DNA of 64,000 nucleotides from Acidimicrobiia bacterium (GCA_041577335.1 JBFGJH010000009.1:5177-69176), one strand, 5' to 3'; counted from the stretch's first letter, positions 13,035 through 33,398 are shown. Program-made: numbers and translations. The notes: generated by a model from the sequence alone, not told the origin.

Positions 13035-13826
13035 GTGTCACACGAGCCATCAACTCCCCGGTCGGTCACTCCGATCGTCGACGGTGTCAAAGGGGCGGCG
13101 ACCGACGACCTGGTCGTCACCGAGTCACCGATGGAGCTCCGGATTGCGTCGGTCCCGATCGCCGTTGTCATGCGCACGCCCGGCAACGACAGCGAGCTGG
13201 CGATGGGATTCCTGCTCACGGAAGGCATCATTTTGTCACCGGGCGAAGTCGCCGCGATTGCGCGTCTGTCCGACGATCGTCTGGAAGTGATGCTTTCGGA
13301 AGGGGTGGTCCTCGACCCAGAGCAGTTCCGGCGAAACCTCTACACCACCTCGTCGTGTGGCGTGTGCGGAAAGGCGAGTATCGACGCCGTTCGAATCACT
13401 GCGCGCGCGATGGCGGACGGACCGGTCGTTCCGGCGGATCGCCTCGACTCTATGGCGGACGTTCTGCGGTCCGGACAGGCGACGTTCGAAACCACGGGAG
13501 GTTTGCATGGGGTCGGGCTGTTCGATGCGGACGGGGGACTCGTGGCCCTCCACGAGGACGTCGGGCGGCACAATGCGGTCGACAAAGTCGTCGGCGAGGC
13601 TGCCCGCAATCGCTGGCCGCTTTCCGACACGGTGCTCATGGTGTCCGGCAGAGTCTCATTCGAAATCGTCCAGAAAGCAGCGGTTGTCGGGATTCCCTTC
13701 GTGGCCGGCATCTCGGCGGCTTCGTCGCTGGCGGTGGAGCTCGGCGAAGAAATGCGAATGACGGTGGTCGGGTTTGTTCGGCCGGGCCGAGCAACGATCT
13801 ATACCGGTGCAGAGCGAGTCGGTTGA
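13035..13826 (+). CDS. fdhD: Formate dehydrogenase accessory sulfurtransferase FdhD
   Basis: MRTPG, SSCGVCG, TGGLH, EDVGRHNAVDK, SGRVSFE. Confidence 0.95.
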   Translation: MSHEPSTPRSVTPIVDGVKGAATDDLVVTESPMELRIASVPIAVVMRTPGNDSELAMGFLLTEGIILSPGEVAAIARLSDDRLEVMLSEGVVLDPEQFRRNLYTTSSCGVCGKASIDAVRITARAMADGPVVPADRLDSMADVLRSGQATFETTGGLHGVGLFDADGGLVALHEDVGRHNAVDKVVGEAARNRWPLSDTVLMVSGRVSFEIVQKAAVVGIPFVAGISAASSLAVELGEEMRMTVVGFVRPGRATIYTGAERVG

Positions 13827-15420: not shown

Positions 15421-17148
15421 TCATTGGCCGGCCTCTTCAGCGAGCTCCAACCACCGGTGTTCTGCCGTTTCCAATTCTTCGAGGCTCGTCGCCAACTGAG
15501 CGCTCAGCTCGTGTGCGTTGTCCCAATCTGAACCGGCAACGTCCAGCCTTTGGCGAAGCTCGGCGATCTTGCGTTCGATGGTGGGTATGCGCTTCGAGAG
15601 GGCCGAATATTCTCGCTGGTCATTGAAGCTGAGGCCTCGGCGGGCGGTCTTGGGCTTGGCGAGCGTCGATGATGCCCTTTCGGTTGGGGGCGTGGGCGCT
15701 TCCTTGGCTGCCCGGTAGCCGGCCCAGCCCTGAGGATGATGCACCACCGCGCCTCCCGGCTCGAGCGAGAACAGGTGCTCGCATACCCGGTCGAGGAAGA
15801 AGCGATCATGGCTGGCCACGACCACTGCTCCGATCCAATGGTCGAGGAGATCCTCGAGGGTCCGAAGCGTGTCGAGGTCGAGATCGTTGGTCGGCTCATC
15901 GAGCATGAGCACATTCGGCGCCGTGGCCAGGACGCGGATGAGCTCGAGCCTGCGGCGTTCGCCGCCGGAGAGCTCATCGATCCGGGTTGAGTGCTGGCGC
16001 GAAGGAAAACCGAATCGCTCCAGGAGCTGGCTGGCGCCGATGGTCACACCGGTCGAGAGTCGAGTCTGGAGGGCAACATCTCGGACCGCATCGAGCAGCC
16101 GCAGTTCTGGGGCCAGGACCGTCGGTTCCTGCCCGTACCAACCGACTCGCACGGTGGACCCATGGACCACCTTGCCCTCGTCCACGGGTACGAATCCTGC
16201 CATCATGCCCAGCAGGGTGGTCTTCCCCGAGCCGTTGGGGCCGACCAATCCAATCCTGCTGTCCGGGGCCAACCGGTACGTGAAGTTGCGGACGACCCAC
16301 CGGTCGTATCGCTTTCCGGCATTGTGAAGATTGACGACCTTGCCGCCGATACGAGCGGTTGGGAGTGTGAAGTCCACGGCGACCTGGCTCTCGGTGGTCG
16401 TCACATCCTGGAGTTTTTCAGCTCTCTGTACTCGATACTTGGCCTTGCCGGTCCGCGCCTTGGGGCTGCGGCTGAGCCACTCGAGCTCACGACGAGCTGT
16501 GTTCCGCAGCTTGCGCTCCGTCGCCTCGGTATGAGCCTGGCGACGCGCCCGGGCAGCGAGGAAGTCGGAGTAGCTGCCCTGGTGCTCGAAGACCTCGGTT
16601 CGGTCCACCTCGAGAATGCGGTTGCTGACCCGGTCGAGAAGGTATCGGTCGTGGGTCACGATCACGAGCGCGCCCGGCCGAGTGGCCAATCTCTCTTCGA
16701 GCCAGTCGATGAAGTCGACGTCGAGGTGGTTGGTTGGTTCGTCGAGGATCAGCAGTTCTGCCGGCTTCGCCAACGCCTCGGCGAGCGCGACTCTGCGTTT
16801 CTCGCCGCCTGACAGGTCGGCGAGCGGGACATCCATGGCGGCGAATCCCATTCGATCCAACAGCGCCAAAGTGTCTCGGCTTCGTGAGGCGACGTCGCCG
16901 ACGGTGCGGCCCGGGACAACCAGAGGCTGCTGCTCGAGGAAGCTGATCCGCAACCCGACGTTGGTGATGACGGTCCCTTCGTCGGGCTCGTCGAGCCCGC
17001 CCAGGATGCGCAGCAGGGTTGATTTTCCGGATCCGTTGACGCCAATGACACCGATCCGGTCTCCTTCGTGGATGCCCAGGCTGACTGACTCCAAGACCGG
17101 TCCTTCGGGATAGCGCTTGGAGATGTCTTGGCACGTGAGGAGGACCAT
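15421..17148 (-). CDS. ABC-F family ATP-binding protein (Uup-like)
   Basis: Two NBDs (GVNGSGKST, GPNGSGKTT; LSGGE; LDEPTN; HDR), no TM segments, C-terminal coiled coil. Confidence 0.92.
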   Translation of the reverse strand: MVLLTCQDISKRYPEGPVLESVSLGIHEGDRIGVIGVNGSGKSTLLRILGGLDEPDEGTVITNVGLRISFLEQQPLVVPGRTVGDVASRSRDTLALLDRMGFAAMDVPLADLSGGEKRRVALAEALAKPAELLILDEPTNHLDVDFIDWLEERLATRPGALVIVTHDRYLLDRVSNRILEVDRTEVFEHQGSYSDFLAARARRQAHTEATERKLRNTARRELEWLSRSPKARTGKAKYRVQRAEKLQDVTTTESQVAVDFTLPTARIGGKVVNLHNAGKRYDRWVVRNFTYRLAPDSRIGLVGPNGSGKTTLLGMMAGFVPVDEGKVVHGSTVRVGWYGQEPTVLAPELRLLDAVRDVALQTRLSTGVTIGASQLLERFGFPSRQHSTRIDELSGGERRRLELIRVLATAPNVLMLDEPTNDLDLDTLRTLEDLLDHWIGAVVVASHDRFFLDRVCEHLFSLEPGGAVVHHPQGWAGYRAAKEAPTPPTERASSTLAKPKTARRGLSFNDQREYSALSKRIPTIERKIAELRQRLDVAGSDWDNAHELSAQLATSLEELETAEHRWLELAEEAGQ

Positions 17149-17205
17149 GCCCGAGACGCTAGTGGCCTGGCCTAGTCTCCTCACGTCTCACCGAGGAGCG
17201 AAACA

Positions 17206-17982
17206 ATGGAAGTGCGTGTCGACGGAAAGGTGGCTGTGGTCACCGGGGGCAGCCGGGGTATCGGCCTGGCCATCGCCGAGGAACTGATCCGATCCGGCGC
17301 GACCGGAGTCGTGATCACCTCGAGAAAACCCGACAACCTCGCCGCAGCGCTCGAGGCCATCGGTGGGAGCACTGGGCAGCCCGAGCGTGTCCATGGTGTG
17401 ATCGCTCCGGCGGATGACCCCGAGGCAGCCCGATCAGCGGTCGAGGAGACTGTCGAGCGGTTCGGGTCGTGCGACATTCTCATCAACAATGCCGGAACGA
17501 ACCCGGCCGTCGGCGATCTCGCCGATGTCGACTTGGGGGCCGTCGACAAGACGTGGGCGGTCAACCAGAAGGGCCCCGTCGTCTGGGCACAACAGGCGTG
17601 GCACCAGTGGATGAAAGCCAATGGCGGTGTGATCATCAACACGGCATCGGTGGGCGGATTCGCCCCGGGCCCCATGATCGGCGCCTACAACGTTTCCAAG
17701 GCAGCGCTGATTCACATCACTCGTCAACTGGCGATGGAGATGGCACCCGGCGTGAGGGTGAACGCGGTGGCGCCGGCGGTCGTGAAGACGAAGCTGTCTG
17801 AGATGCTGTGGACGCACGATGAAGCGGCCGTCGCCAAGACTCATCCGCTCAACCGGTTGGGCGAGCCACAAGACATTGCCAACGCCGTGGTGTTTCTATG
17901 CTCCGACAAGGCGTCATGGATCACCGGAGTCACTTTGCCCGTCGACGGCGGGGTCGTTGGTGCGTCGGGAGCGATCGGCTGA
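17206..17982 (+). CDS. SDR family oxidoreductase
   Basis: TGGSRGIG, NNAG, YNVSK catalytic motif. Confidence 0.93.
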   Translation: MEVRVDGKVAVVTGGSRGIGLAIAEELIRSGATGVVITSRKPDNLAAALEAIGGSTGQPERVHGVIAPADDPEAARSAVEETVERFGSCDILINNAGTNPAVGDLADVDLGAVDKTWAVNQKGPVVWAQQAWHQWMKANGGVIINTASVGGFAPGPMIGAYNVSKAALIHITRQLAMEMAPGVRVNAVAPAVVKTKLSEMLWTHDEAAVAKTHPLNRLGEPQDIANAVVFLCSDKASWITGVTLPVDGGVVGASGAIG

Positions 17983-31480: not shown

Positions 31481-32461
31481 ATGCAGTTTGGTGCTTTTGT
31501 TTCCCAGGGTTGGCGACTCGACCTGGTGGGGATACCGGTCGAACAGCAGTGGCAGTCGATGGCAAACATGGCCGCGACGCTCGAGAAGGCAGGGTTCCAG
31601 TCGGCATGGGTCTACGACCATCTCCACACCTTTCCGACCGCCACGCAGGAATCTTCCTTCGAGGCGTGGTCACTCATGGCGGCACTGGCAGCGGTAACGG
31701 ACACGATCCGGCTCGGTCAGATGTGTACCTGCAACTCGTATCGACCACCGTCGTATCTCGCCAAGATGGCTTCGTCCATCGACGTCATCTCCAATGGCCG
31801 GCTCGAAATGGGCATCGGTGCGGGATGGTACGAAGCCGAATACCTCGGATACGGCTACGAATTCCCGAAGGCTTCCGTCCGCATCGGGATGCTCCGCGAA
31901 GCAGTCGAGATCATGCGGGCGATGTGGACCGAAGATGTCGTCCAATTCGACGGTGAGTATTACCAGCTGGCTGGCGCCATCAACCAACCAAAGGGAATCC
32001 AAAAGCCTCACATCCCGCTCTGGATCGCCGGCGGTGGCGAAAAACTCACCCTCAATGTGGCTGCCCGATATGCCAATTACACCAACTTCGGCGGGCGCAT
32101 CGAGGAGTTCGTCCACAAGTCTGAGGTCTTGGCCGGCCACTGCCGCGAGGTCGGCCGGAACTACGACGAGATCGTTCGATCCTCGAACTTCAATGTCGTG
32201 TGTGCCGCCACCGAATCCGGCCTACGGGAGAAGAAGGAGCGACTCGCCGACAAGTGGAGCGGGCTGGTCCCCGACAAGGTTCACCAACGGTGGGTCGAAG
32301 AGCTGAACGACAATGCGGGAACGCCTGAACAGCTCGTCGAACGATTCCGGCCATATGTCGAGGCCGGGTCCACGTACGCCATCATCTATTTCCCGGATTT
32401 CGCGTACGACGACAGCGGTGTCGAGCTGTTCGCCAGCGAGGTCATGCCCGCGTTCGGGTAG
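31481..32461 (+). CDS. LLM-class F420-dependent oxidoreductase
   Basis: WVYDH, RLGQMCTCNSYR, GIGAGWY, WIAGGGEKLTL. Confidence 0.88.
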   Translation: MQFGAFVSQGWRLDLVGIPVEQQWQSMANMAATLEKAGFQSAWVYDHLHTFPTATQESSFEAWSLMAALAAVTDTIRLGQMCTCNSYRPPSYLAKMASSIDVISNGRLEMGIGAGWYEAEYLGYGYEFPKASVRIGMLREAVEIMRAMWTEDVVQFDGEYYQLAGAINQPKGIQKPHIPLWIAGGGEKLTLNVAARYANYTNFGGRIEEFVHKSEVLAGHCREVGRNYDEIVRSSNFNVVCAATESGLREKKERLADKWSGLVPDKVHQRWVEELNDNAGTPEQLVERFRPYVEAGSTYAIIYFPDFAYDDSGVELFASEVMPAFG

Positions 32462-32473
32462 GCAAGCCGGCCA

Positions 32474-33028
32474 TCAACTCTCTTGCCAATCGATCCAATC
32501 CTCGAGCGGAACGCCGAGGCCGTCGGCAATTCGATTGACGTAGGCGTAGTAACCCACCACCTCGGCGATGTCCAGGATGTCACGATCGCTGAACCCTGAC
32601 TCACGGAGCGAATTGATATCTTGTTCGGTCATATCCCACGGGGTCATCGTCAACTTGACCGCGTACCGGAGCATGGCCTTGCGTGCGTCGCTGATCGCAG
32701 CCGCTTCGTAGTCGGTTTCGATTGCTGACAGGAGCTGGTCGTCCTTGAGAAGACGGCGCAGACCGCGCCGATGGTGGGCCACTCAGTAGTGGCATTCGTT
32801 GGATTGCGACACGATGAGGGCGATCATCTCCCTCTCGACTTTGCGAAGGGTGGCGGTCCCCGCCATCACTGCTCGATAGAGATCGAAGTGAGATCTCAGC
32901 CCTGCTGGGTGGAGCGAGTGGATCCCCATGATGTGATCGACCTTCCCGTTGGTCGGGTCGGCGACCTCGTCGTAGAGGGCGGCCAGCTCGTCGGATACTT
33001 CCTCGGGGTCGGTGTTGATCCAGGCCAT
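32474..33028 (-). CDS. AhpD/CMD-family peroxidase-related enzyme with in-frame UGA (probable selenocysteine, CxxU)
   Basis: Two ORF-track ORFs are contiguous in frame across one TGA (32783-32785): EREMIALIVSQSNECHY-U-VAHH; C-terminal GFSDRDILDI...YYAYVNRIADGLG; 184 aa with read-through. Confidence 0.85.
32754..32782 (-). promoter_or_regulatory. Bacterial SECIS-like hairpin
   Basis: UGA-GUGGCCCACCAU-CGGCGC-GGUCU-GCGCCG: 6-bp stem with a G-containing loop starting 18 nt after UGA. Confidence 0.7.
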
Positions 33029-33095
33029 GACCAAAGCCTAGGACCTGCCTGAACGCGGGTGCGCCGTAGGATGGCTCTTCGTCGGAAGGAGTCAG

Positions 33096-33398
33096 ATGAT
33101 CGTCATCGCCGGCACGCTGCCCATCAAAACGGAAGAGCGCCCCGCGCTCGAACCCGGCCTGCGCGACCTGATCGCGGCGACGCTCCAGGAGCAAGGCTGC
33201 GTCGAATATGCCTTTGGGTTCGATGTGACCGAGCCTGGTCTCATCCGGATCTTCGAGATCTGGGAATCGGATGAGGCACTTGCCGCGCATGCCCGATCCG
33301 AGCATGTGGCGGCCTGGGGGAGGCTGGCGCGGCCGGCCATCGACGGCCCGTTGCAATTGACCCGGTACGTCATCGAATCAGCCGGCCCCTACCCGTGA
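33096..33398 (+). CDS. Antibiotic biosynthesis monooxygenase / putative quinol monooxygenase
   Basis: E.GC..Y...IFEIWES.EAL.AH..SEH pattern; RBS AAGGAG. Confidence 0.85.
   Translation: MIVIAGTLPIKTEERPALEPGLRDLIAATLQEQGCVEYAFGFDVTEPGLIRIFEIWESDEALAAHARSEHVAAWGRLARPAIDGPLQLTRYVIESAGPYP

Follow-up and report, generated by a model that had tools for sequence, protein, structure and literature searches.

A probable AhpD-like selenoprotein gene with an in-frame UGA codon and a SECIS hairpin in an Acidimicrobiia bacterium

Layout of the locus and family of its product

The window analysed here, a stretch of 64,000 nucleotides, belongs to an Acidimicrobiia-class genome that is available as a draft assembly of 128 contigs. 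On its minus strand, two open reading frames, 32783..33034 (83 aa) and 32474..32782 (102 aa), are listed in the same frame. When the TGA at 32783-32785 was read through, the translation gave a single frame of 187 residues, ...IVSQSNECHY-U-VAHHRRGLRRLLKDD..., with the read-through site in the context ...SQSNECHY-U-VAHHRRGLRR.... The initial annotation had described the two frames as one, split only by this TGA, and had placed the TGA at the second cysteine of the motif, NECHY-U-VAHH. The ORF listing and the translation agree on the former, and the latter is seen in the translation, where homologues with a cysteine align at the same place. The extent given for the gene, 32474..33028, also stood, its end coordinate already implying the ATG at 33028; the strand had to be corrected to minus.

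The full-length homologues in the database begin with MAW, MSW or VAW, and the ATG at 33028 is therefore preferred as the start over the TTG at 33034. With this most likely start codon, the complete AhpD-like (TIGR01926) gene at 32474..33028 (minus strand) would consist of 184 codons, with selenocysteine at residue 82, and a terminal TGA stop at 32474-32476, the second TGA of the read-through frame. The searches were run on the 187-residue translation (P0002), in which the same position is residue 84. The N-terminal part of the gene (32786..33028) corresponds to the 83-aa frame of standard callers, 81 aa when counted from the ATG. The C-terminal part (32477..32782) is called as a gene of 102 aa with a GTG start that abuts the TGA. 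The in-frame UGA at 32783..32785 takes the second position of the CxxU redox motif and is assigned as the selenocysteine codon by its conservation and its pairing with cysteine in relatives.

The Pfam domain CMD (PF02627) matched residues 51-123, across the TGA, with an E-value of 9.8e-13. The NCBIfam model TIGR01926 ('peroxidase-related enzyme') scored 139.6 bits against a cut-off of 81.8, with residues 27-177 lying on profile positions 24-175 of 178, and TIGR00778, for the CMD/AhpD core domain, scored 40.2 bits against 27.8. The model of canonical AhpD, TIGR00777, reached 17.3 bits, under its cut-off of 191.95, and hence the product is not an AhpD equivalog. Under their equivalog cut-offs were also NF041238 (AhpD_rel_CFYUT, 51.6 bits against 175) and NF053654 (GroundWater YciW-related (seleno)protein, 24.2 bits against 310). 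The assignment to the AhpD/CMD family with a CxxU motif, proposed in the initial annotation, is borne out by the TIGR01926 score, the CMD match that spans the TGA and the C-H-Y-U motif.

The best solved relatives by sequence were 3c1l, 2pfx, 6k40 and 2prr (E-values from 1e-27 to 8e-21). The PDB entry 3c1l matched with an E-value of 1.1e-27, and its CyyC was aligned on the C..C(U) motif. An AlphaFold2 model, computed from an input of 28 sequences, showed a single helical domain with a pLDDT of 91.9 and a pTM of 0.88. The block means near the Sec site were 95-98, and the redox motif opens the helix 82-96. Compared by Foldseek with 2pfx, 2prr, 3c1l and 6k40, the model gave TM scores of 0.83-0.87 at 25-34% identity. 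Invariant columns in the homologue alignment are E69, C81 and H87/H88, and the Glu-(11 residues)-Cys-x-x-Cys/Sec-x-x-x-His spacing of E69, C81 and H88 resembles what we take to be the proton relay of M. tuberculosis AhpD. We infer that the product is a thiol-selenol oxidoreductase of about 20 kDa with the AhpD/CMD fold, belonging to the AhpD-like family. A putative peroxidase or disulfide-reductase activity is suggested by the motif and by the genetics of the relative DR1765.

The neighbours of the locus encode a LOG-like protein, a luciferase-like monooxygenase, an ABM protein, an MFS transporter and an AAA_5 protein; an ahpC-type gene was not found among them. When about 1.5 kb on each side of 24 orthologous loci was searched by tblastn, the LOG-like protein, the luciferase-like monooxygenase, the ABM protein and the MFS transporter were present at none (0/24). 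None of these four neighbours is conserved within these short flanks, although a more distant linkage is conceivable, and no redox partner can be proposed from the context.

The UGA codon and the hairpin downstream of it

The reading of the codon was checked in Logan contigs. Contigs from four runs of four studies cover 32783-32785 and show no alternative letter (records 5, 8, 14 and 21); one of them (X3) is possibly the source sample, in which case it would not be independent of the assembly. The variant nearest to the TGA in these contigs, 32771 A>G, is synonymous in a His codon. In more than 100 orthologues from independent assemblies, TGA rather than TGC or TGT was found. The initial annotation had reckoned with TGC or TGT in the reads as the sign of a sequencing error or a pseudogene, and the TGA in the contigs of the four runs and in more than 100 orthologues speaks against this. 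Short contigs of foreign organisms aligned in all four runs only to 32732-32802, where the summed depth rose 2- to 4-fold. This pile-up is what would be expected if no other nucleotide segment of the gene were as conserved as the UGA-SECIS stretch.

Conservation of the codon was followed in several sets of orthologues, which overlap in part because some of the same genomes were reached by two routes, so that the counts are not additive. Among 41 relatives, a single TGA was present in 17/17 matches with E <= 2.5e-31, and mostly none in the weaker paralogues. In 15 extracted orthologues, the TGA was matched to the column throughout, with the motif N-x-C-[H/V]-Y-U; one of them (L030) comes from a genome, G036, that is flagged as unpublished, and without it the count is 14/14. 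A class-level sample of 251 genomes contained 52 with a match at E <= 1e-30, and 61 of the 62 class-level matches listed had one TGA. Close orthologues, with pairwise identities of 52-92% (median 60%), carried TGA at the Sec column in 25/25 cases. Further species-level loci carried it in 79/80, the sole exception having TTA (L089). The C-terminal half of the gene is well conserved, both in the 15 extracted orthologues and in the full-length database homologues.

A second, distant clade of AhpD-like genes also contains TGA (L030-L032 and many class-level matches, for instance in the genus g50). Its identity is 32-42% and its TGA is column-matched, and the downstream hairpins differ, one example being GACCUC-CGGGCC-GAGGUC. 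This clade occurred in 24 of the 60 genomes sampled from the family f16, whose genomes are very small, with about 1 Mb in g50.

The database search returned 261 relatives at E <= 0.001, and the classification covers the 120 that were listed. Twenty of these 120 are full-length homologues with cysteine at the Sec column; together with the aligned CyyC of 3c1l, they provide the Cys/UGA pairing that the initial annotation had proposed to look for in homologues. The others listed have tryptophan (13) or leucine (1) at this column, or are C-terminal pieces (82) or other fragments (4). The 82 pieces start with M/V-x-HHRRGL, right behind the Sec column. The statement that AhpD-like selenoproteins exist and are often mis-annotated thus found its counterpart here, in a published family and in the 82 pieces among the 120 listed relatives.

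Downstream of the UGA, the RNA continues with a 12-nt spacer, GUGGCCCACCAU (32771..32782, minus strand), coding for V-A-H-H, and then with CGGCGC-GGUCU-GCGCCG, a predicted SECIS hairpin at 32754..32770 (minus strand). It consists of a 5' arm CGGCGC (32770-32765), a loop GGUCU (32764-32760) and a 3' arm GCGCCG (32759-32754). The stem, of 6 bp, and the loop, whose first base lies 18 nt after the UGA, were both noted in the initial annotation and can be read directly from the sequence. In an alignment of 104 sequences (100 distinct), the stem was 93.2% paired at 6 bp, whereas slid partners gave 17.7-50.7%. Nineteen compensatory cells with both sides changed were counted, and 0/500 shuffles reached the observed covariation, figures that overstate independence since the orthologues are phylogenetically related. 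This kinship affects neither the slid controls nor the finding of four different Watson-Crick pairs at a single position: the pair 24/36 is GC in 65 sequences, GU in 14, CG in 8, AU in 6, UA in 1 and unpaired in 6. The pair 27/33 is CG in 93, UG in 4 and UA in 2. In 25 sequences, a version of the stem with 7 pairs was 92.6% paired, and since its outermost pair holds in only 16/25, the core stem is taken as 6 bp.

The GGUCU loop was kept in 24/25 close orthologues and in 78/79 further loci, and the spacer was constant in length and free of gaps in 104/104 aligned sequences. The six hairpin codons had synonymous-codon identities of 0.71, 0.78, 0.92, 0.92, 0.59 and 0.38, against a mean of 0.34 and a maximum of 0.51 at 24 other conserved Arg, Gly or Leu columns. 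Five of the six hairpin codons lie above the maximum found elsewhere, a sign of suppressed synonymous variation. Since the Cys forms, too, retain the peptide HHRRGLRRLL, protein constraint accounts for some of the nucleotide conservation in the hairpin.

The folding energy of the hairpin region was no better than that of shuffles (z = -0.18 and 0.00). Since the genuine fdhF element of E. coli likewise gave z = 0.10 against shuffles, folding energy was dropped as a criterion; the signal that exceeds chance is comparative and does not lie in the folding energy. Rfam gave no match at E <= 10 in 32400-33100. In the 75 nt after the terminal TGA, GGU was not found.

Selenocysteine machinery and the forms of the gene in other genomes

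Selenocysteine decoding requires selA, selB, selC and selD, a search for which had been suggested in the initial annotation, and all four are present in the host genome. On contig C3, selA (424 bits) adjoins selB (338 bits). The tRNA-Sec scored 81.3 bits and was called by ARAGORN as tRNA-SeC with the anticodon TCA. The selD gene (381 bits) has a TGA at the catalytic site, SHGSG-U-ACK, and is itself a selenoprotein gene, located at L009:1501-2424 (G000:C64:8321-9244, plus strand). A TGA at SCNRT-U-HAPSV was found in an FdhA-like molybdopterin oxidoreductase on contig C50. This gene (L080, minus strand) extends over about 16893-17453 and further downstream, and NuoE/NuoF-like sequence follows in the same translation. 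The fdhD gene (FdhD-NarQ, 228 bits) that had been reported in the window was found there at 13116-13820 on the plus strand (C9:18292-18996); the Sec-type FdhA-like gene lies on a different contig.

The FdhA hairpin of the host, GUCGCC-GGUCU-GGCGGC, has its loop 18 nt after the UGA and thus the same architecture as that of the AhpD-like gene. In the host SelD, 32 nt separate the UGA from the loop of the hairpin, GGCGCA-GGUUC-UGCGCC. In a genome scan, open frames with an in-frame TGA were searched for a GGUYY loop on a perfect stem of 6 bp, 14-35 nt after the TGA. This gave 15 candidates, and a coding-like composition was found only for the AhpD-like gene, FdhA and SelD (GC3 0.76). At least these three selenoprotein genes are detectable, a lower bound given the strict stem and loop pattern of the scan and a genome completeness of 90.75%. 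A genome-wide reassignment of TGA was considered and rejected, as TGA is the main stop codon and closes 990 of 1539 long coding-like frames. It also ends the AhpD-like gene and three of its five neighbours.

Among 51 genomes of the class that bear the TGA form, 46 have selA. A selD with TGA is present in each of the remaining five, and a tRNA-Sec of 75-80 bits was found in 4/4 tested; the presence of these two components suggests that selA is probably unassembled in the five genomes. G001, a genome of the same genus that is 98% complete, has the TGA-type selD, the AhpD-like gene with TGA and a tRNA-Sec (80 bits). A search for selA gave no match there even with the threshold relaxed to E <= 0.001, likely because of an assembly gap. 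The single stop-free form at class level belongs to G254, a genome of 95% completeness, which gave no selA match and, with the tRNA-Sec model, a top score of 55 bits, an ambiguous value.

Homologues with TGC instead of TGA were obtained from three Acidobacteriota MAGs (L063, L064 and L066). They are mutually 80-81% identical and retain the peptide HHRRGL(R/Q)RLL. At the place of the hairpin they have CGGCGC-GGAUU-GCAGCG, CGGCGG-GGUCU-GCGCCG and AGGCGC-GGUCU-GCGCCG, and to judge from these sequences the hairpin appears to be eroding; it was intact in 15/15 TGA forms fetched alongside. In the three Acidobacteriota genomes, which may be incomplete, selA was not found. A Planctomycetota bin that keeps the TGA has a selA at 510 bits. 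The three Cys forms look like a recent conversion of selenocysteine to cysteine.

An Actinomycetes MAG (L089) has a leucine codon, TTA, at the Sec column, followed by the perfect hairpin CGTCGC-GGUCU-GCGACG. Its relative L090, 84% identical, has TGA and the same stem; the TTA is due either to an inactivation that happened very recently or to an error in base calling. Tryptophan was found at the Sec column of 13 full-length database proteins (P0005, P0007, P0008, P0010, P0016, P0020, P0021, P0024, P0025, P0034, P0037, P0055 and P0089). The nearest recovered relative of P0007, L083 with 86% identity, carries TGA at this column, and on this ground the tryptophan is probably a TGA that the gene caller translated under another code.

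Orthologues with TGA and a GGUCU hairpin were also observed in bins of other phyla: L077, L146, L156 and L167 (Planctomycetota), L133 (Saprospiraceae) and L166 (Thermoanaerobaculia). They reflect either horizontal transfer or contamination during binning. It is conceivable, though we consider it rather doubtful, that a near-frozen SECIS cassette travels with the gene, and that in hosts without Sec machinery the UGA turns into a Cys codon and the hairpin decays as a datable fossil. If this were true, the gene would allow the conversion of Sec to Cys to be followed across phyla as in a natural time series.

Interpretation and comparison with known systems

We conclude that the region 32474-33028 (minus strand) is very probably a single AhpD-like selenoprotein gene whose internal UGA would be read as selenocysteine. 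Following the established bacterial mechanism, SelB-GTP with Sec-tRNA(Sec) would be held by the GGUCU hairpin 12 nt downstream when the ribosome reaches the UGA at 32785-32783, and would deliver selenocysteine. At the terminal UGA (32476-32474), which has no such hairpin, translation would terminate. In the folded protein, the selenolate of U82 and C79 would be placed at the N-terminus of a helix. U82 could then attack either a peroxide or a partner in its oxidised state, for instance a sulfenate of the peroxiredoxin type or a disulfide, and form a selenenylsulfide with C79 that would be re-reduced by a reductant.

Other fates of the UGA have to be weighed against selenocysteine insertion. It might be passed by a near-cognate Trp or Cys tRNA, or might mainly terminate translation and leave an 81-residue fragment, for example under selenium limitation. 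Selenocysteine insertion in bacteria is incomplete and depends on selenium, which leaves some room for such events. However, a conserved SECIS of the FdhA architecture and a complete machinery would not be kept for read-through without selenocysteine, and the termination product would be an N-terminal fragment that lacks half of a single domain. We regard this explanation as unlikely. Even less probable is a pseudogene, in which the former Cys codon of an ordinary AhpD-like gene (TGC or TGT) has suffered a nonsense change to TGA. Only one base separates these codons, Cys-form homologues are known, and the TTA in L089 shows that the Sec codon can mutate. Against this stand the TGA in 25/25 and 79/80 orthologues at 52-92% identity with both halves open, the conserved structured RNA 3' of the TGA and the capacity of the genome to decode selenocysteine. 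In addition, the well-conserved C-terminal half does not look as if it evolved neutrally.

The remaining two explanations can practically be dismissed. A sequencing or assembly error that hides a TGC or TGT might be suspected in a 128-contig draft, but the contigs of the four runs from four studies show no other letter and more than 100 other genomes have TGA as well. Two separate small genes of 83 and 102 aa, as standard callers annotate them, might be assumed from the GTG right behind the TGA and from the 82 of 120 listed relatives that are annotated as C-terminal pieces. The CMD match (51-123) and the TIGR01926 match (27-177), however, cross the break, the AlphaFold2 model is one compact domain and each Cys-form homologue is one protein of about 183 aa.

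The selenoprotein gene so identified belongs to a family described before. According to the available text of PMC1088965, AhpD-like proteins with CxxU were a new selenoprotein family in the Sargasso Sea data (2005), with 27 sequences in COG2128. In the available text of PMC2398784, 'AhpD-like 1' (COG2128) is the fourth most numerous family of the GOS analysis (2008), with 299 Sec and 902 Cys forms. An entry 'AhpD-like protein | TIGR01926 | CxxU' appears in the accessible part of a 2026 review (PMC13188914), and BSepDB, as presented in the accessible part of PMC13326102, has an AhpD-like family page and stresses truncation as the usual mis-annotation. The words 'Acidimicrobiia', 'Actinomycetota' and 'Actinobacteria' do not occur in the accessible text of PMC13188914, nor do 'Acidimicrobiia' and 'Actinomycetota' in that of PMC13326102; supplements or BSepDB itself may already list the orthologue group.

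Since AhpD-like CxxU proteins are a published and abundant selenoprotein family, the novelty of the gene is low, and with family and mechanism both established it opens no new question. Its main value is for annotation, as the gene would otherwise appear as two hypothetical ORFs. With 82 of the 120 listed relatives being C-terminal pieces and 13 more carrying tryptophan, the selenoproteome of the Acidimicrobiia class is systematically under-called. The scale of this mis-annotation and the fossil hairpins in the Cys forms are the more interesting by-products. Because the hairpin is very uniform and agrees with E. coli fdhF in loop and spacing, heterologous expression and biochemistry of the enzyme family should be practical.

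The likeness to the fdhF SECIS, noted in the initial annotation, was confirmed in NC_000913, where the Sec TGA of fdhF is followed by 18 nt and then by GGTCTGC. Both elements have GGUCUGC 18 nt after the UGA, a small G-rich apical loop and a stem containing GC pairs. In the MFE fold of fdhF, one base of the 5' arm is left unpaired and an A-U pair closes a loop of 4 nt; in the window element, the 6-bp GC helix is uninterrupted, without a bulge, and carries a loop of 5 nt. SelB binding to fdhF involves the bulged U and the G/U of the loop. In the available text of PMC1088965, a bacterial SECIS is defined as a stem-loop whose small apical loop contains G, and the window hairpin, with its small GGUCU apical loop on a 6-bp stem, has this form.

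Among the enzymes, the closest characterised structural relative is DR1765 of Deinococcus radiodurans (6k40). As reported in the available text of PMC8945050, its knockout is sensitive to H2O2 and complementation needs the cysteines of CxxC. DR1765, 3c1l (Mlr4105), 2pfx and 2prr share the fold and have the redox motif in the same place, but they contain CxxC and not CxxU and are only 25-34% identical. Canonical AhpD of M. tuberculosis (TIGR00777) shares the CMD/AhpD core domain; it differs in that its model scores 17.3 bits here against the required 191.95 and that no ahpC-type neighbour exists at the window locus. With the AhpD-like selenoprotein family, the gene has in common a TIGR01926 score above cut-off, the CxxU motif, the Sec/Cys pairing with many Cys homologues and the small SECIS loop containing G that is described in the available part of PMC1088965. 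Nothing essential differs, the copy in the window residing in an Acidimicrobiia-class genome. The gene shows every testable defining feature of the AhpD-like family and is an ordinary member of it, a correction of annotation and not a discovery.
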